A stretch of DNA of 64,000 bases from an uncultured Bacteroidales bacterium (GTDB lineage Bacteria; Bacteroidota; Bacteroidia; Bacteroidales; BM520). The stretch is from contig CAYYSU010000007.1 in the NCBI GenBank assembly GCA_964474455.1, positions 760 through 64,759 of the forward strand. The letters run 5' to 3'. The notes beneath the pieces are model-generated. The model saw only the letters and a program-made list of their open reading frames with translations, had not been told where the DNA came from and did no database searches. The position numbers and the translations under genes are program-made. Below, in pieces: positions 41,360 to 51,300 of the stretch (position 1 is its first letter; every line of letters begins with the position of its first letter).

Positions 41360-42622
41360 ATGAATGATGACTTAGATCAAGGTTTTGAGCCTCCGTTAAA
41401 AGAAGATCTTGCTTCGATTGATGCAGTCTTTACAACATCTAATACTGAAGAAAGTCCTTTTAGTAACACCAAAATTTCTATTTCGGACTTTAAAGTCATT
41501 AACACAATAACACAACAATTCAGGGAGACTCATTTTCCTGAAGCCACAGACAAACAGTGGAATAGTTGGCGATGGCAAATACAAAACAGTTATGTCAAAT
41601 TTAAAAAATTATCTGAAATACTAGATATTAGTAGTATTGATGATGTTGATTTTTTATCTAAATCAAGAAAACTTCCTTTAAGAATTACGCCTTATTATGC
41701 CAGTTTACTTTCGGGAAAACCTGTGACTTATGCATTAAGCAAAACAGTTGTCCCGGACAAGAAAGAACTTATCATTTCACCGGGTGAAGAATCCGATCCT
41801 CTGCATGAAGATGCTATGTGTCCGGTCTATAACCTGGTTCATCGTTATCCTGATAGAGTATTAATGCTGTCGACCGGTTTTTGTTCAACTTATTGTCGCT
41901 ATTGTACCCGCTCACACATGGTGCTTAAAGACAAGAAGCATTATGGAGTAAAGGCATGGGAAAAATCAATTGAATACATAAGAAATAATCAGAATGTCAG
42001 AGATGTGGTAATTTCCGGCGGTGATCCGCTAACTTTACCTGATAAGCATATTGAATTTCTGCTCTCTTCGCTAAGAGCGATTCCACATGTGGAAATTATT
42101 AGAATTGGAACAAAAGTACCAATGGTGCTCCCCCAGCGAATCACTAATAATTTAGTGAAGATGCTGAAAAAATATCACCCCGTCTATATGAGTATTCACA
42201 GTATCCATCCTGATGAAATAACTCCTGAAGTAATAGAAGCTGCCAATCGCATTGCTAATGCAGGAATTGTAATGGGTAGCCAAACCGTTTTGTTGCAGGG
42301 CGTAAATGATAATGTGGAAACCATGAAGAAATTAATGCATGAACTATTAAAAATCAGAATACGACCCTATTATATTTATCAGTGTGACCCCATTCCGGGT
42401 TCATCTCATTTCAGAACACCCGTTTCAATAGGTGTAAAAATTATTCATGGCCTCAGAGGCTTTACAAGTGGTTATGCAATACCCCATTATGTGATTGACG
42501 CACCCGGTGGAGGTGGAAAAATACCTTTATTACCAAACTATTATCAAGGAAGAAAAGGTGACTCTGTGGTGCTGGAAAATTTTGAAGGAAAAACCTATAA
42601 GTATTACGATCCTGAAAAGTAA
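41360..42622 (+). CDS. kamA: L-lysine 2,3-aminomutase (KamA/AblA family radical SAM, PLP-dependent)
   Basis: 420 aa. WNSWRWQIQN, radical-SAM CSTYCRYCTR, and SGGDPL. Equivalents of both Asp residues that bind the lysine epsilon-amine are present (YIYQCD, VIDAPGGGGK), as is the PLP lysine in GGGGK. Confidence 0.9.
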   Translation: MNDDLDQGFEPPLKEDLASIDAVFTTSNTEESPFSNTKISISDFKVINTITQQFRETHFPEATDKQWNSWRWQIQNSYVKFKKLSEILDISSIDDVDFLSKSRKLPLRITPYYASLLSGKPVTYALSKTVVPDKKELIISPGEESDPLHEDAMCPVYNLVHRYPDRVLMLSTGFCSTYCRYCTRSHMVLKDKKHYGVKAWEKSIEYIRNNQNVRDVVISGGDPLTLPDKHIEFLLSSLRAIPHVEIIRIGTKVPMVLPQRITNNLVKMLKKYHPVYMSIHSIHPDEITPEVIEAANRIANAGIVMGSQTVLLQGVNDNVETMKKLMHELLKIRIRPYYIYQCDPIPGSSHFRTPVSIGVKIIHGLRGFTSGYAIPHYVIDAPGGGGKIPLLPNYYQGRKGDSVVLENFEGKTYKYYDPEK

Positions 42623-42633
42623 AAAAGCAATGT

Positions 42634-44376
42634 ATGTTTATCATTAGAAAGATTGCCGATACTTATCATCAGTCCAATAAATATGCCATTGGACAGGTTT
42701 TGGATATTCTGAAAATTCAATTTTCTTCTCTTAAAGAAGAAAAAATAAATGATGTTCTCGAACAGATGAAGGATCCTTTAAAATATCGTTTTTCATCTCA
42801 AATTTTTGTGGCTGAAGATGGCAAAGGTAATGTGAAAGGGTTTGCAATTTTGTTTTATATGCCTGATAAAAACTTCTGCTACCTCGACTACATAGCTGTT
42901 AAACCAAGCAGAATTTCTTCCGGTGTTGGTGGTGCCATATACGAAAGGATCAGAGAAGAAGCACAACTTTTAAATTCAATTGGAATATTTATGGAGTGCC
43001 TTCCTGATGACGAAGAATTATGCAAAGACAAAAGTGAAATAAAGCAAAATAAAGCTCGATTGGCATTTTATGAACGTTACGGAGCCAGACCTATCATAGG
43101 CACCAAATATGAAACACCCGTAAATCCGGAGGATAGTTGTCCTCCATATTTGGTTTTTGATGATTTGGGAAATGATATACGTTTATCTTCGGCGCAGGCA
43201 AAAAAAATAATCAGGGCTATATTGGAGCGAAAATATCCAAACTATTGTCCTGAGGATTATATCCAAACAGTAATCAAATCAATCAATGATAATCCTGTCA
43301 AATTAAGAGAATTCAAATATCTTGTTAAAGACAGGCCTATACAAAAAATCGAAGCCGTTAAAGATGAGATTATGCTGATAGTAAATGATAAGCATGACAT
43401 CCATCACATAAAAGAAAGAGGATATATAGAATCGCCGGTTCGCATAAAAAGTATAACCAAAGAGATTGAAAAATTAAATGCATTCAAAATGAGACCATCA
43501 CGAGGGTTTCCCGACAGGCTCATTACTGAAGTTCATAATCCCAAATTATTTAATTATATTAAAACTGTCTGCGATAAAATTCCGGAAGGCAAGTCTATTT
43601 ATCCTTATGTTTTTCCCATCAGAAATGCAACACGTCCGCCCAAAGATTATTCAGTTCTTGCAGGATACTATTGCATCGACACATTTACACCAATAAACAA
43701 AAACGCATTTTTAGCAGCTCGTTCCGGAGTCAATTGCGCACTCACCGGAGCCGAATTATTATTGGAGGGTTATCATAGTGCTTATGCTTTGATTCGTCCT
43801 CCGGGGCATCATGCTGAAACGGAGGTTTTTGGAGGTTTTTGTTATTTTAATAATGCTTCTATCGCGGCAAACTTTCTTTCCAAATATGGTAAGGTGGCAA
43901 TTCTGGATATCGACTACCACCATGGAAACGGGCACCAGCAAATTTTTTATAATCGCAATGATGTGTTCACCGTGTCCATACATGGTAATCCTTCTTTTGC
44001 TTACCCTTATTTCACCGGTTTTGCCGATGAAAAAGGTGAGGGCGAGGGCGAGGGATATAATTTAAACTACCCCATAAAAGAGAATTTAAATGGCGATGAA
44101 TACCTTGTGTACCTCAAGCAGGTTATTAAAAAAATTATCAGCTTTAAACCCGAATATCTGATCATAAGTTTGGGCTTTGATCCTGCTAAAGGAGATCCCA
44201 CCGGAACATGGTCATTAAAAGCCAGCGATTTCAAAAATAATGGTGCCGAATTAGGAAAGATACCCGTTCCGATTTTATTTGTGCAAGAGGGGGGTTATAA
44301 AAACAGAACCCTGGGCATCAATGCCCGGAATTTTTTTGAAGGATATTTATCCACAAGAATAAGAAGAAAACAATGA
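42634..44376 (+). CDS. Fusion protein: N-terminal GNAT-like domain + C-terminal HDAC-family (acetylpolyamine amidohydrolase-like) deacetylase
   Basis: 580 aa. N-terminal ~180 aa carry a GNAT-like beta4-alpha3 signature (YIAVKPSRISSGVGGAIYERIREEA). The C-terminal domain has all HDAC catalytic motifs: RPPGHHAE, ILDIDYHHGNG, SLGFDPAKGDP and QEGGY. Confidence 0.85.
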   Translation: MFIIRKIADTYHQSNKYAIGQVLDILKIQFSSLKEEKINDVLEQMKDPLKYRFSSQIFVAEDGKGNVKGFAILFYMPDKNFCYLDYIAVKPSRISSGVGGAIYERIREEAQLLNSIGIFMECLPDDEELCKDKSEIKQNKARLAFYERYGARPIIGTKYETPVNPEDSCPPYLVFDDLGNDIRLSSAQAKKIIRAILERKYPNYCPEDYIQTVIKSINDNPVKLREFKYLVKDRPIQKIEAVKDEIMLIVNDKHDIHHIKERGYIESPVRIKSITKEIEKLNAFKMRPSRGFPDRLITEVHNPKLFNYIKTVCDKIPEGKSIYPYVFPIRNATRPPKDYSVLAGYYCIDTFTPINKNAFLAARSGVNCALTGAELLLEGYHSAYALIRPPGHHAETEVFGGFCYFNNASIAANFLSKYGKVAILDIDYHHGNGHQQIFYNRNDVFTVSIHGNPSFAYPYFTGFADEKGEGEGEGYNLNYPIKENLNGDEYLVYLKQVIKKIISFKPEYLIISLGFDPAKGDPTGTWSLKASDFKNNGAELGKIPVPILFVQEGGYKNRTLGINARNFFEGYLSTRIRRKQ

Positions 44377-45347
44377 AAGTAGGATTAACATACGACCTGA
44401 GAATCGATTATCTCAATGAAGGTTATTCTTTGGAGGAGACGGCTGAATTTGACAAGGAAAGCACCATTGAAGGCATTGAGCAAGCTATTCAAAAGGAGGG
44501 ATATGAGACCCACCGTATTGGAAATGCCAAAAGTTTAATAATACAGTTGCTGGCTGGAGAAAGTTGGGATATTATCTTTAATATAACCGAAGGCCTTTAT
44601 GGTGAAGGGCGCGAATCGCTGGTGCCTGCCCTGTTGGATATGTACAAAATACCCTATGTCTTCTCCGGACCTGTTACATTAGGAATATCGTTAAACAAAG
44701 CCTTTGCTAAACAGATTGTAAGAGATAGCGGAATTAACACACCACCATTTTATGTGGTTTCAAAAACCACAGATATTGAAAAGATCAAGCTTCAATACCC
44801 TCTTTTTGCGAAACCTGTTGCGGAGGGTACCGGCAAAGGAATAACCAACCGTTCTCTTATCAAAACAGAGGATCAACTTCTTAGTGTTTGTACTCAATTG
44901 CTCGAAAAATATAATCAACCTGTTCTAGTAGAAGAATTTTTACCCGGAAGAGAATTTACCGTCGGGGTACTCGGAACCGGTGAGACAGCCCGGGTGCCCG
45001 GAGCCATGGAAATTATTTCTAAACAGAAAGATTCCACGCAAATATACTCTTACGACACAAAAGAAAACTACGCAGATAAGATAGAATATGTACCTGTTAC
45101 CGGCGAACTGCTGGAAGCCTGCAAAGATTTAGCGCTGGGCGCATGGAGGGCTCTTAATTGTTACGACGGCGGACGCGTTGATGTAAAAGTGGATCGTTAT
45201 GGAAAAATGAGCTTTATAGAAGTAAACCCTTTGGCCGGACTGAACCCCGTTACTTCAGATTTACCCATCTTATGTGGATTAAACGGAATGTCGTATCAGG
45301 AGATTATTTCAGAAATAATGAAATCAGCAATTAAGAGAAATTTTTAG
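44373..45347 (+). CDS. ATP-grasp ligase, D-Ala-D-Ala ligase-like family (non-canonical), copy 1
   Basis: 324 aa. LFAKPVAEGTGKGI, VEEFLPGREFTVGVLG and GRVDVKVDRYGKMSFIEVNPLAGL match the Ddl C-terminal ATP-grasp fold. The Ddl N-terminal GGxSxEHEVS motif is absent. The start overlaps the upstream stop (ATGA). Confidence 0.85.
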   Translation: MKVGLTYDLRIDYLNEGYSLEETAEFDKESTIEGIEQAIQKEGYETHRIGNAKSLIIQLLAGESWDIIFNITEGLYGEGRESLVPALLDMYKIPYVFSGPVTLGISLNKAFAKQIVRDSGINTPPFYVVSKTTDIEKIKLQYPLFAKPVAEGTGKGITNRSLIKTEDQLLSVCTQLLEKYNQPVLVEEFLPGREFTVGVLGTGETARVPGAMEIISKQKDSTQIYSYDTKENYADKIEYVPVTGELLEACKDLALGAWRALNCYDGGRVDVKVDRYGKMSFIEVNPLAGLNPVTSDLPILCGLNGMSYQEIISEIMKSAIKRNF

Positions 45348-45349
45348 TC

Positions 45350-46312
45350 ATGAGTAAAATAATTATTCTTCACAATAAAATTCAGAATCACACCGAAGAT
45401 GAATTAGATGTCCTCGACCAGAGAGATTTAGTAACAGAGGCGTGTAAAAATTTAGGGCATGATGTTATTACAATGACGGTTGGAGATGACATTCAGGCAG
45501 ATCTAAAGATAGTGCAGGCACAGCAACCGGATATAGTTTTCAATTTAGTAGAGTCAAGTTGGGGAAAAGGCGAGTTACTCTATTTTTCTCCTGCCATATT
45601 AAATTCATTAAAAATACCCTATACCGGCATACCTCTTGACGCTTTATTTATAAGCACCAATAAAGTTTTGGCTAAAAAAATAATGCGATTATTCAATTTA
45701 CCCACAGCCGACTTTTTTGCTATGGATGAAATCAACAAACTGGATGCATCAAAAACCTATATCATAAAACCAATTTGGGAAGAAGCTTCTGTTGGAATTG
45801 ACACAGATTCAGTATTTCAGCCCCGCGACACCGATAAGTTGAAAAAATTGGCTCAACTATCTTCTTCTCATTATTTTATTGAGGAATATATTGATGGGCG
45901 GGAATTTAATGTCAGCCTTTTGGCTGATAAAAACGGACTGGAAGTTTTACCTCCTGCCGAAATGTTGTTTACATCATTTTTCGACAACAAACCTAAAGTG
46001 ATCGGATACAAAGCAAAATGGGATGAAAACAGTGAAGAATATAAGCAAACGAACAGGGCTTTCGGGACGCTTGAAAACAATATGCCATTAAAAAAGAAAA
46101 TGACAGATGTATGCCGCAAAAGCTGGAAAGCATTTAACCTGCACGGCTATGCCAGAATAGATTTTAGGGTGGACGATAAGGACAACCTGTATATTTTGGA
46201 AATAAACGGTAATCCTTGCATAGCACCTGACAGCGGATTTATTGCGGCCATAAACTATGCAGGATATAGTAATGAAATCATTGTAAAACGCATTCTGGAA
46301 GACATAAATTAG
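45350..46312 (+). CDS. ATP-grasp ligase, D-Ala-D-Ala ligase-like family (non-canonical), copy 2
   Basis: 320 aa, a paralogue of copy 1 (DIVFNLVES...LKIPYTG...NKVLAKKIM; YIIKPIWEEASVGI; IEEYIDGREFNVSLL; ARIDFRVDDKDNLYILEINGNPCIAP). Starts 2 nt after the upstream stop. Confidence 0.85.
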   Translation: MSKIIILHNKIQNHTEDELDVLDQRDLVTEACKNLGHDVITMTVGDDIQADLKIVQAQQPDIVFNLVESSWGKGELLYFSPAILNSLKIPYTGIPLDALFISTNKVLAKKIMRLFNLPTADFFAMDEINKLDASKTYIIKPIWEEASVGIDTDSVFQPRDTDKLKKLAQLSSSHYFIEEYIDGREFNVSLLADKNGLEVLPPAEMLFTSFFDNKPKVIGYKAKWDENSEEYKQTNRAFGTLENNMPLKKKMTDVCRKSWKAFNLHGYARIDFRVDDKDNLYILEINGNPCIAPDSGFIAAINYAGYSNEIIVKRILEDIN

Positions 46313-46313
46313 A

Positions 46314-46796
46314 ATGATGATATTTAGAAGAAAACTAAGACCGGATGATGTTTTTTCTGTGAAAGAGATATTAGATTCTACCGGATTGTTTTACAATTCA
46401 GAAGTGGAAATTGCCCGGGAGTTAGCCTGGAAAAACATCAATGAAGGAGAAGAGAAGAGCGGTTATATTTTTAATATCGTTGAAATTGATGATAAACCTG
46501 TTGGGTTTACCTGCTATGGTAAAATCCCAGGTACTGCCGATAGTTTTGATTTATACTGGATTGCCATTCATGCCTCTCAGCAAAAAAAAGGTGTTGGAAA
46601 GATACTCATGTCTATGGCTATAGAGGATATTGAAAAACGGCAAGGCAAAAATATCTGGATAGAGACTTCCTCACGACCAATCTATGAGACTACCCGGCAA
46701 TTTTATATAAAATCCGATTGTCAATTAATCACAGAGCTACCAAATTTTTATGGTCCCAACGACAACAAGGTAGTTTTTCTAAAAAAAATTCATTAA
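46314..46796 (+). CDS. GNAT-family N-acetyltransferase
   Basis: 160 aa. Acetyl-CoA motif A in IAIHASQQKKGVGKILMSMAIEDI. Starts 1 nt after the upstream stop. Confidence 0.85.
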   Translation: MMIFRRKLRPDDVFSVKEILDSTGLFYNSEVEIARELAWKNINEGEEKSGYIFNIVEIDDKPVGFTCYGKIPGTADSFDLYWIAIHASQQKKGVGKILMSMAIEDIEKRQGKNIWIETSSRPIYETTRQFYIKSDCQLITELPNFYGPNDNKVVFLKKIH

Positions 46797-47051: not shown

Positions 47052-48245
47052 ATGGATGATATTAAAACAATCGTAAACGGTCTGGCGCACGATACAATCG
47101 ACGAAGTCGTTTCCATCAGAAGGAAAATCCATGCGTACCCGGAGATCTCTTTCGACGAGTATAAAACATCGGAACTGATACAGCAGAAACTCAAGGAGTG
47201 GGGCATCCATTTTCAGGGCGGCATTGCCACCACGGGAGTGGTAGCGCTTATCGAAGGCCACAATCCTGAAGGCCCAGTAATTGCTATGCGCGCCGATATG
47301 GATGCGCTTCCCATAGAAGAAAAAAATGACGTGGAATACGCCTCCGTCAGGCCGGGGTACATGCATGCCTGCGGCCACGACGCACACACCGCCATGGTAC
47401 TTGGTGCCGGAAAGATCATCCATGAGCTGCGCGATTATTTCTCGGGCAAAGTGATGCTTATCTTCCAGCCTTCCGAAGAGACGTACCCCGGCGGAGCAAA
47501 GGTGATGCTCGAAGAGGGCATCTTCAGCAAGATAAAACCTGATCTTATCTTCGGGCAACATGTTCTTCCGGAGCTCAACAGCGGAACAATAGGTATGCGC
47601 CCCGGACAATATATGGCTTCCTCCGACGAATTCTACATCCGTGTTCGAGGCAAAGGAGGGCACGGCGCTACCCCACACCTCAACATCGATCCCGTGGTTA
47701 TTGCTTCAGAGATAGTCCTTGCACTACAAACTCTGGTGAGCCGTAAAGCACACCCCGCCATGCCTACGGTAATATCTGTGGGAAAAATGATCGCCGACGG
47801 ACTCCCGAATGTCACCCCCGAAATAGTGGACATGGAGGGAATCATAAGAACCTTCGACGACAAATGGCGCAAAGAGATGCACCAGCTGGTAAAAAATACC
47901 GTCAAAGGTATATCTCACAGCCATGGCGCTACAGCAGAGGTAAATATCATCCATGGCTATCCATCTATATACAACGACGTTGACGTCACCGCAAGGGTAA
48001 AAAGATATGCAGAGATCTACTGGGGGAAACAAAATGTTAAAAATCTGCCTCAACGGATGACTTCCGACGATATGGCCTATTTCCTTAAAGAGGTTCCCGG
48101 GACATACTACCGTCTGGGATCAGGAAACCCGGAGAAGGGAATCACCGCCAACCTCCATTCTTCTACCTTTGACATTGACGAAGAGACACTACTTCCAGGG
48201 ATGGCATTCCTCTCGTATGTCGTACTTTCGGAGCTCGAGCGTTGA
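47052..48245 (+). CDS. M20D-family amidohydrolase (N-acyl-amino acid amidohydrolase / hippurate hydrolase-like)
   Basis: 397 aa from ATG 47052. IRRKIHAYPEISFDEYKTS, MHACGHDAHT, and QPSEE...GGA. The track ORF starts at GTG 46935, but that hydrophobic extension precedes the promoter box. Confidence 0.85.
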   Translation: MDDIKTIVNGLAHDTIDEVVSIRRKIHAYPEISFDEYKTSELIQQKLKEWGIHFQGGIATTGVVALIEGHNPEGPVIAMRADMDALPIEEKNDVEYASVRPGYMHACGHDAHTAMVLGAGKIIHELRDYFSGKVMLIFQPSEETYPGGAKVMLEEGIFSKIKPDLIFGQHVLPELNSGTIGMRPGQYMASSDEFYIRVRGKGGHGATPHLNIDPVVIASEIVLALQTLVSRKAHPAMPTVISVGKMIADGLPNVTPEIVDMEGIIRTFDDKWRKEMHQLVKNTVKGISHSHGATAEVNIIHGYPSIYNDVDVTARVKRYAEIYWGKQNVKNLPQRMTSDDMAYFLKEVPGTYYRLGSGNPEKGITANLHSSTFDIDEETLLPGMAFLSYVVLSELER

Positions 48246-48322: not shown

Positions 48323-48383
48323 GCACTCTTCGGCAAGGATCTGATACATATTGTCAAGTACACTTTCCGTTAACCCTGAAGCT

Positions 48384-49454
48384 ATGAAAGTAAACAACAT
48401 CCACTACCTTACCATCCGCATGGAAGGCTCTTCCGTTTTTATGGTAGAGCAAAACAAGTTACCCTTTGAATTCACTGTTTATGAAGCCAAAAGCTACCGT
48501 GATACGTGCATGGCAATTACTACTATGATCACGCGCGGTGCCGGCGCCATCGGTGCCGCCGGCGGCTTCGCCATGGCGCAGGCCTTTATGGACACCGTTC
48601 CCCCAAAGCAGCCCAGGGAAACGAACAGGGAATCTTACCTCCGGAAAGCCCGCGAAGAGATCCGGAAGACACGCCCCACAGCACAAAACCTCTTCTACGC
48701 CATCGACAGGGTGTATAAAGCAGGAATGGAAGATGGTGAAGATGCTGCCATAGCAGAGGCACAAAAGATAGCTCAGGAGAATGTGGAAGAAGGACGCACC
48801 ATCGGGATGTATGGACGTGAGCTTATCACCGACGGCATGAAGGTGATGACACACTGCAACGCCGGATGGCTGGGATTTGTGGACTACGGAACCGCTGTCT
48901 CGGTTATACATCTCGCCCGGGAGCAGGGCAAGAAGTTCTTTGTGTGGGCTAACGAGACCCGGCCACGCAGCCAGGGAGCACGCCTCACAGCATGGGAGTT
49001 GGTCAATGCCGGCATCTATCACGCCATTGTCCCCGACAACGCCGGTGCATGGCTTATGGAAAAAGGCGACGTGGATATGATTATCGTCGGGGCGGATCGC
49101 ATCGCTGCCAATGGCGACACGGCGAATAAAATCGGAACCCTCGAAAAGGCCATAGTGGCAAAACGTTTCAACGTGCCGTTCTATGTGGCCGCGCCACTCT
49201 CCACCTTTGATATGGAGTGCCCTGATGGTTCACAAATACCTATCGAACAGCGAAGCGAAGATGAAGTGCACTACCAAACGGGGCCGGACAGGGAGGGCAT
49301 AATGCGAACCATACGTGTTTCAGCACCGGGATCAAAAGCAATAAACCCTGCCTTCGACGTGACACCTGCTGAACTCATCACCGCGATCATTACCGACAAA
49401 GGAATTATTAAACCCGAAACCAAAACCATAGCAGCGTTGTTTAACAGACAGTAA
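48384..49454 (+). CDS. mtnA: eIF-2B alpha/beta/delta-family sugar-phosphate isomerase (S-methyl-5-thioribose-1-phosphate isomerase-like)
   Basis: 356 aa from ATG 48384. MITRGAGAIGAAGGFAMAQ, HCNAGWL, ETRPRSQGARLTAWEL, GADRIAANGDTANKIGT, and DVTPAELITAIITDKG. Exact substrate (MTR-1-P versus another ribose-1-phosphate derivative) cannot be fixed from sequence. Confidence 0.7.
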   Translation: MKVNNIHYLTIRMEGSSVFMVEQNKLPFEFTVYEAKSYRDTCMAITTMITRGAGAIGAAGGFAMAQAFMDTVPPKQPRETNRESYLRKAREEIRKTRPTAQNLFYAIDRVYKAGMEDGEDAAIAEAQKIAQENVEEGRTIGMYGRELITDGMKVMTHCNAGWLGFVDYGTAVSVIHLAREQGKKFFVWANETRPRSQGARLTAWELVNAGIYHAIVPDNAGAWLMEKGDVDMIIVGADRIAANGDTANKIGTLEKAIVAKRFNVPFYVAAPLSTFDMECPDGSQIPIEQRSEDEVHYQTGPDREGIMRTIRVSAPGSKAINPAFDVTPAELITAIITDKGIIKPETKTIAALFNRQ

Positions 49455-49473: not shown

Positions 49474-51300
49474 ATGAACGAAAAAGCACTACGCCCGATT
49501 ACCGACTGGCTGCCCATCACCAAACAGGAGATGGAAAAGCACGGCTGGTCGCAACCCGATGTTATACTTATCAGCGGCGACGCTTATGTGGATCACCCTG
49601 CATTTGGAAATGCCTTTATCGCCCGCGTGCTGGAATATGCCGGGCTGAAAGTAGCAATCATCCCACAACCCAACTGGCAGGATGACCTGAGAGACTTTAA
49701 GAAGTTCGGAGCACCGAGACTCTTTTTTGCCATCACCTCCGGAAATATGGACTCTATGGTGAACCATTATACCGCAAACAAACGCTTACGCTCCGACGAT
49801 GCATATACACCGGGAAATAAGGCCGGTTTTAGACCCGACTACGCCCTCACCGTTTATAGTAAAATCATCAAAGAGCTATATCCTGATTCGCCGGTTATAA
49901 TCGGCGGCATAGAAGCGTCACTGCGAAGGCTCACACACTACGACTACTGGTCGGATGAGTTAAAGCAGTCGGTGCTGGCGGAGACAAAAGCCGACCTCCT
50001 GGTTTACGGCATGGGAGAATTACCTATTACGCAAATAGCTGAACGCATACAAAAAGGGGAAGATATCTCCACATTGACGGATATTCCACAGACGGCACTT
50101 CTCACCACAAACCCCACCCCGGAAGCCACATTCCTGGCAGAATTTAACCTCTGCAAAAAGGACAAACGAGCCTTCGCTGAGGCATTTAAAATCATAGAGA
50201 CAGAGTCGAACAGGATGAAGCCTGCAACGCTGGCACAGAAACAGGAAGACGGAATCTTCGTGCAGGTAAACCCACCATTTCCAACCATGGAAAGCCATAT
50301 ACTGGACAAATATTACGAATTGCCATACACCAGAACACCTCATCCCAAATATAAAAAACGCGGAGTTATTCCGGCGTATGAGATGATTCGCCACTCAGTG
50401 AACATCCATCGCGGATGCTTTGGCGGATGCGCCTTCTGCACAATATCAGCACACCAGGGGAAATTTATCGCCTCCAGAAGTGAGAAATCCATACTTAAAG
50501 AGGTGAAAAAGATTACAGAAATGGAGGATTTCTACGGCACCATTACCGACCTGGGAGGGCCGTCGGCTAATATGTACCGCATGAAAGGTGTGGACGAAAG
50601 GTTGTGTCTCAAATGCAGAAGACCGTCGTGTGTGTTTCCCATGATCTGCAAAAACCTGGATGCAGATCACAAACCCTTAACAGAACTATACACCAAAGCG
50701 CGAAAGATAAAAGGTGTGAAGCACGTATTCATCAGTAGCGGCATACGTTACGACATGCTGCTATCCGCAAACCATCATACCAATGTACATATCAGCGAAT
50801 ACACATCCAATCTCATCCGGCATCATATCAGTGGTAGGCTAAAGGTAGCGCCGGAGCACACCTCCGACGATGTGCTTAACATCATGAGAAAGGGAAGCTT
50901 TTCACAGTTTCATGTATTCAAGAAGCTCTTCGACAAGGGCAACAAAGAGGTCGGATTAAAGCAGCAGCTTATCCCCTATTTCATCAGTAGTCACCCGGGG
51001 AGTAAACTAACAGATATGGCTCATCTTGCCGCAGAGACCAAGGCCATGGGCTTTCGTTTGGAGCAGATCCAGGATTTCACTCCCACACCGATGACCCTGG
51101 CCACAGTAATGTTCTACACCGGCCTTGACCCGTACACCGGGAAGCCTGTTTACACCGCCAAATCACAGAATGACAAGAGAGATCAGCGGATATTCTTTTT
51201 CTGGTACAAGGGAGAAAACCGACGCCGTATCACCACCATCTTAGATAAGGAGAACAGGCTCGATCTGGCGAAGGCGCTGTTGGCAGGCAAGAAAAGGTGA
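49474..51300 (+). CDS. ygiQ: YgiQ-family radical SAM protein (UPF0313)
   Basis: 608 aa. N-terminal DVILISGDAYVDHPAFGNAFIARVLE and radical-SAM-type Cys motif RGCFGGCAFCTI are typical of YgiQ. Confidence 0.88.
   Translation: MNEKALRPITDWLPITKQEMEKHGWSQPDVILISGDAYVDHPAFGNAFIARVLEYAGLKVAIIPQPNWQDDLRDFKKFGAPRLFFAITSGNMDSMVNHYTANKRLRSDDAYTPGNKAGFRPDYALTVYSKIIKELYPDSPVIIGGIEASLRRLTHYDYWSDELKQSVLAETKADLLVYGMGELPITQIAERIQKGEDISTLTDIPQTALLTTNPTPEATFLAEFNLCKKDKRAFAEAFKIIETESNRMKPATLAQKQEDGIFVQVNPPFPTMESHILDKYYELPYTRTPHPKYKKRGVIPAYEMIRHSVNIHRGCFGGCAFCTISAHQGKFIASRSEKSILKEVKKITEMEDFYGTITDLGGPSANMYRMKGVDERLCLKCRRPSCVFPMICKNLDADHKPLTELYTKARKIKGVKHVFISSGIRYDMLLSANHHTNVHISEYTSNLIRHHISGRLKVAPEHTSDDVLNIMRKGSFSQFHVFKKLFDKGNKEVGLKQQLIPYFISSHPGSKLTDMAHLAAETKAMGFRLEQIQDFTPTPMTLATVMFYTGLDPYTGKPVYTAKSQNDKRDQRIFFFWYKGENRRRITTILDKENRLDLAKALLAGKKR

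Follow-up and report, generated by a model that had tools for sequence, protein, structure and literature searches.

What can a bacterium gain from a single polypeptide that carries both an enzyme family that adds acetyl groups and one that removes them? This question is raised by a gene of an uncultured Bacteroidales bacterium (GenBank assembly GCA_964474455.1), found in a stretch of 64,000 nucleotides of contig CAYYSU010000007.1 (positions 760 to 64,759 of the forward strand). This whole stretch is hereafter named the window, and all coordinates refer to it. From the letters alone, an earlier note had described the gene product as an acetyltransferase-like (GNAT) domain joined to a catalytically intact HDAC-family deacetylase. 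The open reading frame runs without interruption from ATG to TGA at 42634-44376 of the plus strand and encodes 580 residues, hereafter the fusion protein. The sequence motifs cited in that description are all present in this one frame: the GNAT-like signature VKPSRISSGVGGAIYERI at residues 89-106, PPGHHAE at 389-395, DIDYHHGNG at 425-433, GFDP at 514-517 and EGGY at 552-555. Both domain assignments are near-certain. For the function we propose a bifunctional N-acetyltransferase/N-deacetylase that would edit the acetylation of a β-lysine-derived product made by neighbouring genes, an explanation to which, as a whole, we give an even chance of being right.

The N-terminal half was matched by two Pfam models above their gathering scores, Acetyltransf_7 (PF13508; residues 55-150, 31.8 bits against 27) and Acetyltransf_1 (PF00583; residues 45-125, 25.1 bits against 20.7). 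An AlphaFold model computed from a 124-sequence alignment (mean pLDDT 79.5, pTM 0.69) reached a pLDDT of 86-97 over residues 1-230. It showed the element order β1-α1-α2-β2-β3-β4-α3-β5-α4-β6-β7, which is the canonical GNAT topology (β1 2-7, α1 13-29, α2 35-51, β2 54-62, β3 67-76, β4 81-89, α3 98-112, β5 118-122, α4 133-147, β6 152-155, β7 172-176). When a profile of 32 diverged N-domains was compared with the PDB, the matches at E<=0.02 were exclusively GNATs, as were nearly all of the 60 matches listed. A phmmer search of the PDB with residues 1-258 gave no match. Foldseek with the full model returned only HDAC and APAH structures among the 50 matches listed, and is no independent test of the GNAT fold. 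With two Pfam models passed and a canonical topology, the N-terminal half is almost certainly a GNAT, as the earlier note had supposed, and not an unrelated oligomerisation domain. Matches to the NCBIfam model "three-helix bundle dimerization domain" (NF046112) were below cut-off and at inconsistent positions, and were treated as noise.

Conservation was evaluated in an alignment of the window protein, taken as reference, with 79 full-length homologues from a genome collection covering at least eight phyla (n=80). Fourteen residues of the GNAT half were found to be invariant in all 80 sequences: Gly97, Gly99, Tyr103, Glu121, Cys122, Leu123, Asp125, Arg142, Leu143, Phe145, Tyr146, Glu147, Pro153 and Asp176. 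Asn139 (75/80), Gly150 (78/80) and Ala151 (79/80) are nearly so, as is Asp85 (74/80, otherwise Glu). The pair Gly97-x-Gly99, followed by Gly or Ser at position 100 and then by Ala101, corresponds to the glycine pair of the CoA pyrophosphate loop and aligns with the "G-I-G" of streptothricin-type acetyltransferases. The segment N139-K-A-R-L-A-F-Y146-E-R-Y-G-A fits the GNAT motif B pattern "N..A...Y...GF". In the 7ypu and 5c82 (nourseothricin) acetyltransferases, the residue aligned with Glu121 is the Glu of the "LEV" motif. Together, Glu121 in β5 and Tyr146 at the end of α4 occupy what we take to be the positions of Glu103 and Tyr115, the general base and general acid of RimI. Mean identity to the window protein is 56% in the GNAT half, 41% in the connector and 62% in the deacetylase half. 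The GNAT half is therefore constrained about as strongly as an undoubted catalytic deacetylase domain, and, judged from its sequence, it is very probably an active enzyme.

The earlier note had also considered a regulatory pseudo-GNAT. In that case the N-terminal half would be a non-catalytic domain binding acetyl-CoA or substrate, with a regulatory or lid role, maybe in place of a shortened L1 lid of the deacetylase. This would account for Pfam scores that are marginal, for the many homologues without a precomputed GNAT match, for the unconserved Q/R position of motif A and for an L1 loop seven residues shorter than in the Pseudomonas sp. deacetylase PsApaH. However, such a domain would hardly be expected to keep Gly97, Gly99 and the RimI-type pair positions Glu121 and Tyr146 in 80 of 80 sequences, or to be conserved nearly as well as the deacetylase half, and we consider a non-catalytic role quite unlikely. 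Of note, the segment ECLPDD after strand β5 (residues 121-126, window positions 42994-43011) is almost invariant, and the place of Cys122 directly behind the putative general base may point to an acyl-enzyme (ping-pong) mechanism.

Two independent libraries agree on the streptothricin and nourseothricin acetyltransferases (STAT/NAT/SatA) as the nearest GNATs of known function to the N-domain. The top three PDB matches of the N-domain profile were 7ypu, 3pp9 (putative streptothricin acetyltransferase) and 5c82 (nourseothricin acetyltransferase), with E-values of 2e-5 to 5e-5. Among 18,950 NCBIfam models, streptothricin N-acetyltransferase NF000487 was both the best-scoring and the most often matched (8 of the 32 N-domains, best E 6e-8). 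The window protein itself did not match NF000487, either at E<=1 with the N-domain alone or at E<=0.1 with the whole protein, and a whole-protein scan of NCBIfam gave no model that names it. Streptothricin acetyltransferases acetylate the β-amino group of the β-lysine residue, a β-lysyl amide, in streptothricins. In contrast to these enzymes, the fusion has no antibiotic-resistance context and is joined to a deacetylase.

The C-terminal half raises no doubt as to its family. Pfam Hist_deacetyl (PF00850) covers residues 265-568 with an E-value of 5e-72. A PDB sequence search with residues 248-571 gave 9gkz (PsApaH, from Pseudomonas sp.) as the best match (E 6e-73), followed by 6phr (Marinobacter APAH), 3q9b (Mycoplana APAH) and 3men. 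Against APAH structures, Foldseek returned target-normalised TM-scores of 0.76-0.83 at 34-38% identity. The C-terminal 330 residues share with the bacterial APAHs 9GKZ, 6PHR and 3Q9B the fold, the tandem His, the Asp/His/Asp zinc site and the Tyr of the xGGY motif. In contrast to them, the fusion has an additional N-terminal module of 247 residues, made of the GNAT and a helical part, and its context is β-lysine metabolism, not polyamine catabolism. The helical part is a conserved subdomain (pLDDT above 88 for residues 181-230; Tyr201, Tyr209 and Ser216 invariant) that ends in a variable hinge (pLDDT about 53 for 231-240). All catalytic and zinc residues of the deacetylase are invariant in the 80 sequences, which agrees with the earlier note, and this half is predicted to be catalytically intact, its domain assignment being near-certain.

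PsApaH represents "cluster 4" of the classification of Graf et al. 2024 (PMC11532494). Members of this cluster are dimers whose L1 and L2 loops limit the active site to small acetylated amines, and it is the sole bacterial cluster with polyamine deacetylase activity (PMC11532494). The assignment to cluster 4 therefore argues for a small-molecule rather than a protein substrate. If the fusion were instead a writer and eraser of protein lysines, regulating for example pathway enzymes by reversible acetylation, it could draw on the facts that GNATs serve as bacterial protein acetyltransferases and that PsApaH has some peptide deacetylase activity (PMC11532494). We regard this as very unlikely: the C-domain falls in the dimeric, loop-occluded cluster of polyamine deacetylases, with the L2 specificity-loop region kept by alignment, no regulatory domain typical of bacterial protein acetyltransferases was found with Pfam, and the fusion is tightly associated with a metabolite pathway. 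In cluster 4, an extended L2 "polyamine specificity loop" drives the formation of head-to-head dimers. The corresponding region of the fusion (about residues 322-354) can be aligned to PsApaH and msAPAH with no large gap and has YPY.FP and GYY..D.FTP conserved, although it is modelled at a pLDDT below 50. The GxD zinc motif is followed by the gatekeeper position, which is occupied by DPIS in characterised bacterial APAHs and by PEG in HDAC10 (PMC11532494). The fusion family differs from both at this position, with DPTG. Together, the DPTG gatekeeper and the short L1 loop may define an unrecognised subfamily, which, with its GNAT cap, would be added to the classification of bacterial deacylases.

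We then considered how widely the fusion is distributed. The earlier note had called it unusual; the survey showed it to be common in nature, in at least eight phyla, and unusual only in being unstudied. In a protein database, the best 120 clusters (at 90% identity) among the matches listed are 525-606 residues long, with at least 90% query coverage and 65-100% identity. Their labels point to metagenome-assembled genomes (MAGs) of Bacteroidales, Marinilabiliales, Spirochaetia, Deltaproteobacteria, Nitrospinae, Elusimicrobia, Marinimicrobia and others. The closest named homologue comes from a Marinilabiliales MAG (88% identity), and identical DNA is present in landfill, sediment and sludge metagenomes. 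In collections with one genome per species, at least 596 confirmed relatives were found, some of them possibly unfused APAHs, one search pattern lying within the deacetylase. The best 80 of these are all full-length two-domain genes with 53-81% identity, matching the query from residue 1 (or 2 or 9) to at least residue 563 in a single frame. They belong to Bacteroidota, Spirochaetota, Desulfobacterota, Gamma- and Alphaproteobacteria, Chloroflexota, Planctomycetota, Acidobacteriota and others. The uniform full length of the 120 clusters and the single frame of the 80 loci rule out an artefact of gene prediction. Five proteins from MAGs of Marinimicrobia, Pseudomonadota, Nitrospinae and Elusimicrobia share 76-82% identity with the Bacteroidota window protein, far above what is expected across phyla; either the contigs were mis-binned or the module was transferred horizontally in recent times.

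The N-domain was searched alone with HMMER against 1.84 billion representative proteins, yielding 515 clusters at E<=1e-3 and 241 at E<=1e-10, all of them proteins of about 580 residues or fragments. Numerous matches of 200-390 residues that could have passed for stand-alone N-domains were fragments at contig ends, and one on a long contig (P0171) came from a frameshifted long-read assembly of the whole cluster. This GNAT subfamily was thus found solely within the fusion. A candidate fusion of an ATP-grasp ligase to a GNAT (P0262) was rejected, as it derives from a long-read MAG assembly with out-of-frame stretches. Two triple fusions, P0243 (762 residues) and P0267 (738 residues), carry a second GNAT behind the deacetylase; in P0243 this domain is a clear orthologue (35% identity, E 2e-32) of GNAT2, the stand-alone GNAT encoded near the fusion gene in the window. 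Plasmid records contained stand-alone APAHs alone and no full-length fusion, and viral contigs one stand-alone APAH. On plasmid pW43C of Parasedimentitalea marina, a stand-alone APAH-like gene lies in a putative catabolic operon with a gene of the 3-keto-5-aminohexanoate-cleavage family, an aminotransferase, an amidohydrolase and an amino-acid ABC transporter; this operon may serve the breakdown of an acetylated (β-)amino compound. A search of full-text literature, with most subscription journals outside its scope, found nothing on the fusion or on the gene cluster described below. The fusion is thus widespread and abundant in databases under generic names, yet undescribed in the literature searched.

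The genes around the fusion give clues to its substrate. Its gene comes second in a compact operon of five genes with intergenic spacing of -4 to +11 nucleotides. The first encodes a KamA-family radical-SAM lysine 2,3-aminomutase, the third and fourth encode two ATP-grasp ligases, and the operon ends, as the earlier note had reported, with GNAT2, a second and separate acetyltransferase. KamA matched the Clostridium lysine 2,3-aminomutase 2a5h with an E-value of 5e-117 over 361 residues and keeps the segments "YQCD" and "VIDAPGGGGK", in which the counterparts of Asp293, Asp330 and Lys337 lie. Asp293 and Asp330 bind the ε-ammonium group of lysine, and glutamate 2,3-aminomutase has other residues in their place; the Lys337 equivalent is the lysine that holds pyridoxal phosphate. 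Because the lysine-binding aspartates are kept, the product should be β-lysine, in line with the context the earlier note had assumed. In NCBIfam, the KamA subfamily model passed its cut-off, and the AblA equivalog TIGR03820 scored 438.5 bits against a cut-off of 525.4. ATP-grasp ligase 1 matched Ddl structures at an E-value of about 1e-22. In the translations, the metal-binding and catalytic motifs are present in both ligases (R-V-D and E-V-N in ligase 1, R-I-D and E-I-N in ligase 2), so that two ligations are expected. GNAT2 matched PDB entry 2r7h with an E-value of 2.5e-27. This entry is a Desulfovibrio structural-genomics protein deposited as "putative D-alanine N-acetyltransferase", a name that may have been guessed from adjacent Ddl-like genes; its structure could offer a template on which to dock the true substrate of GNAT2.

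Several known systems combine the same enzyme classes. The osmolyte Nε-acetyl-β-lysine of methanogens and some bacteria requires AblA and AblB alone. As in the window, a lysine 2,3-aminomutase is there followed by a GNAT in a single operon, with β-lysine as precursor; the window operon differs in having two ATP-grasp ligases and a deacetylase in addition, and its KamA falls below the AblA cut-off. No AblB-family match was obtained for the N-domain or for GNAT2 in NCBIfam at E<=0.1. AblAB offers nothing equivalent to the two conserved ligases and the deacetylase, so that the product must go beyond N-acetyl-β-lysine. Ngg, a GNAT joined to an ATP-grasp enzyme, makes the N-acetylated dipeptide osmolyte NAGGN, and PylB/PylC, a radical-SAM lysine mutase and a Ddl-like ATP-grasp enzyme, form an isopeptide. 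Both are functional analogies, in which the same classes are combined for small N-acetylated or isopeptide-linked amino-acid derivatives; no specific sequence relationship to either was detected, and both lack a deacetylase.

To assess the linkage between the fusion and these genes, we compared two views. In the first, centred on the fusion, the window neighbours were searched by tblastn against the 80 genome loci. KamA, both ATP-grasp ligases and/or GNAT2 adjoin the fusion in about 50 of the 80, in many phyla and in shuffled orders: KamA, fusion, ligase 1, ligase 2, GNAT2 in Bacteroidota; KamA, ligase 1, ligase 2, fusion, GNAT2 or KamA, ligase 1, ligase 2, GNAT2, fusion in Desulfobacterota and Gammaproteobacteria; and ligase 1, ligase 2, GNAT2, KamA, fusion in Desulfuromonadales. 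Among cultured strains, Oceanispirochaeta crateris and Dasania phycosphaerae carry the whole cluster. Clustering of all open reading frames of at least 90 residues around the 80 loci revealed no further family present in more than 6 of them. GNAT2 is kept wherever the fusion is linked to the cluster, so the N-domain is not redundant with it. In the second view, centred on the core, a profile of ligase 1 was scanned across metagenome contigs, and clusters flanked by at least 2.5 kb on each side were retained (n=23). The recurrent unit was KamA, ligase 1, ligase 2 and GNAT2, around which no extra conserved neighbour of at least 90 residues (transporter, regulator or carrier protein) was detected. 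These four genes form a self-standing module, a new finding of this analysis, of which the fusion is a frequent yet dispensable or unlinked partner.

The recurrent adjacency in shuffled orders, the tight operon spacing, the KamA residues and the triple fusions with GNAT2 are the grounds for linking the fusion to β-lysine. Alternatively, the protein could be a general polyamine enzyme, pairing an SSAT/SpeG-like half with an APAH half independently of β-lysine, its place beside KamA reflecting a shared theme of cationic amines or co-transfer. The C-domain is, after all, 34-38% identical to bona fide polyamine deacetylases, the invariant acidic residues Asp125, Glu147 and Asp176, with Asp85 (or Glu), would suit a polycationic substrate, and in many genomes the fusion is unlinked. 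This alternative does not readily explain why linkage recurs across many phyla with no other conserved neighbour, why the fusion is covalently joined to the GNAT2 of the cluster in some proteins, why DPTG stands where APAHs have the DPIS gatekeeper, or why the N-domain is closer to streptothricin acetyltransferases than to SpeG or PaiA. It appears unlikely to us, and that the substrates derive from β-lysine has about equal chances of being right or wrong.

In the explanation we prefer, the fusion would be a bifunctional small-molecule enzyme. KamA would convert L-lysine to β-lysine, the two Ddl-like ligases would form one or two amide bonds, GNAT2 would add an acetyl group, and the fusion would act on the β-lysine-derived amines of this co-transcribed core. 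Its GNAT half would N-acylate an amine from an acyl-CoA, most likely acetyl-CoA, and its deacetylase half would strip the N-acetyl group from a terminal aminoalkyl chain, the two acting on different nitrogens or different intermediates. Acetyl-CoA as donor and the physiological role are what we infer. As streptothricin acetyltransferases do, the GNAT half may target the β-amine of a β-lysyl amide, and the deacetylase half may target an ε-type terminal acetamide, as APAHs do on N-acetylputrescine or N8-acetylspermidine. The acetamides that APAHs hydrolyse sit on the terminal primary amine of an aliphatic chain, and the ε-acetamide of a β-lysine derivative is such a group. For this specific regiochemistry, an analogy, we would allow roughly one chance in four. 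That the halves resemble enzymes for different nitrogens of one building block supports, from distant relatives, a two-site reading in which no futile cycle would arise and the acetylation pattern, hence the charge, of the product would be re-positioned or edited. A shift of an acetyl group between two amines of β-lysine, which the earlier note had suggested as a channelled transfer, would be compatible with the nearest relatives of both halves. The acetyl group cannot, however, be passed on conservatively, as free acetate is what HDAC chemistry releases. The suggestion of a bifunctional enzyme working at two pathway steps fared unevenly: two-site or two-step bifunctionality gives the best fit, whereas an integral place in the pathway is not supported, the core usually occurring without the fusion.

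Both active sites might also serve as an antagonistic switch, acting on the same nitrogen of the same metabolite, with acetyl-CoA/CoA or an effector setting the ratio of acetylated to free form. This logic is akin to that of AceK, GlnE and SpoT, which are bifunctional opposing enzymes. The two sites are intact and co-conserved, the halves always share one polypeptide with the N-domain never found alone, and the fusion is also present at loci apart from the biosynthetic core, which would suit a homeostatic enzyme. However, the nearest characterised relatives act on different amines (the β-amine of a β-lysyl amide and a terminal acetamide), no regulatory domain or effector site was recognised, and an unregulated switch would amount to a futile acetyl-CoA hydrolase. 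We find such a switch improbable.

Several observations weigh against editing of the core product as we propose it. The GNAT Pfam scores barely exceed their thresholds, and the Q/R position of the motif A pattern Q/R-x-x-G-x-G/A, a weak point, is unconserved (Ile94 in the window protein, mostly Thr elsewhere). The similarity of the N-domain to STAT/NAT/SatA is weak (E 1e-5 to 1e-8), limited to the β2-β5 core and far below the family cut-off. In the deacetylase half, the "PIS" gatekeeper is replaced by DPTG in 80 of 80 sequences and the L1 segment, from the N-terminal His pair to the "ESP" motif, is seven residues shorter than in PsApaH, so an APAH-like substrate preference is not simply transferable. 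As for linkage, the fusion is unlinked in about 30 of the 80 fusion-centred loci. In a Bacteroidales/Rikenellaceae clade (nine loci) it is never linked to KamA or the ATP-grasp ligases and has no conserved neighbours of its own, and it accompanies only 3 of the 23 well-flanked core clusters (linkage at the level of contigs). Given this last figure, its substrate could be other than the core product. The usual absence of an adjacent fusion from the core argues against an obligatory protection and deprotection step and favours accessory editing, remodelling or turnover; the fusion would then be an accessory module and not an obligatory biosynthetic step.

A further, more tentative possibility, which we think doubtful but worth stating, is that the core makes a new β-lysine-containing metabolite and that the fusion is the first single-polypeptide writer and eraser of acetyl groups on a metabolite, setting its acetylation pattern and thereby its charge. 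The metabolite could be a short β-lysyl isopeptide, an oligo-β-lysine polycation or an N-acetylated β-lysyl peptide solute. Its producers would be bacteria of many phyla in anaerobic sediment, sludge and landfill, and the fusion would work by an acetyl shift between amines or as an antagonistic rheostat. Each half comes from a textbook family, yet their covalent union is apparently undescribed although present in MAGs of at least eight bacterial phyla. The fusion flags a gene module that is compact and horizontally mobile, and offers an entry point to a probably new β-lysine-derived metabolite of anoxic environments. In mechanistic terms, opposing acetyl chemistry on one polypeptide would be kept non-futile through site separation or regulation, or else acetyl groups would serve as movable protecting groups in ribosome-independent amide-bond biosynthesis.

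Table 1. Coordinates of the fusion gene, its domains and key residues, and the other genes of the operon in the window.
Feature	Coordinates	Strand	Basis or remark
GNAT / helical connector / APAH-type deacetylase fusion gene	42634..44376	+	Open reading frame list; Pfam PF13508, PF00583 and PF00850; full-length homologues
GNAT domain, residues 1-180	42634..43173	+	Pfam above gathering scores; AlphaFold topology; profile against PDB; conservation
Motif A loop, Gly97-x-Gly99	42922-42930	+	Invariant 80/80
Putative general base Glu121, followed by invariant Cys122	42994-42996 (Glu121)	+	80/80
Motif B, N139-x2-R142-L143-x-F145-Y146-E147-x2-G150-A151, with putative general acid Tyr146	43069-43071 (Tyr146)	+	Conservation
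Connector, residues 181-247: conserved helical subdomain (186-200, 207-215) and variable hinge (~226-247)	43174..43374	+	AlphaFold; conservation
APAH-type (Graf cluster 4) zinc deacetylase domain, residues 248-575	43375..44358	+	PDB search; Foldseek; conservation
Tandem His392/His393	43807-43812	+	Invariant 80/80
Asp425; Zn ligands Asp427, His429 and Asp516	43912-43920 (Asp427, His429); 44179-44181 (Asp516)	+	Invariant 80/80
DPTG, D521-P-T-G524, gatekeeper position	44194-44205	+	Invariant 80/80
Catalytic Tyr555	44296-44298	+	Invariant 80/80
KamA-family radical-SAM lysine 2,3-aminomutase	41360..42622	+	Pfam LAM_C and Radical_SAM; NCBIfam KamA subfamily; 11-nt gap before fusion gene
ATP-grasp ligase 1 (D-Ala-D-Ala-ligase-like)	44373..45347	+	Pfam Dala_Dala_lig_C, E 1e-28; start overlaps fusion stop (ATGA); 2-nt gap to next gene
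ATP-grasp ligase 2, paralogue ~25% identical to ligase 1	45350..46312	+	Pfam; PDB match; 1-nt gap to GNAT2
GNAT2, small stand-alone GNAT, last operon gene	46314..46796	+	Pfam Acetyltransf_1, _7 and _10

Beyond the operon (Table 1), the surrounding genes are typical of Bacteroidota and include a giant protein with a type IX secretion system (T9SS) tail, Omp28 and DUF6029. None of the PADLOC defence-system models matched, Rfam detected no riboswitch or other RNA family in the window, and a promoter and terminator scan gave nothing above background. A second potential deacetylase, an M20 amidohydrolase, is encoded at 47052-48245 of the plus strand, 255 nucleotides downstream of the operon. Its best NCBIfam matches, both below cut-off, are carboxypeptidase CpsA and N-acetyl-diaminobutyrate deacetylase DoeB2, and it adjoins the cluster in no other locus. 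Further downstream, between 48001 and 50000, the G+C content rises to as much as 50%, against about 37-44% in the rest of the window; this stretch spans a gene for an isomerase of the MtnA/eIF-2B family (48351-49454) and the start of a YgiQ-type radical-SAM gene (49474-51300).

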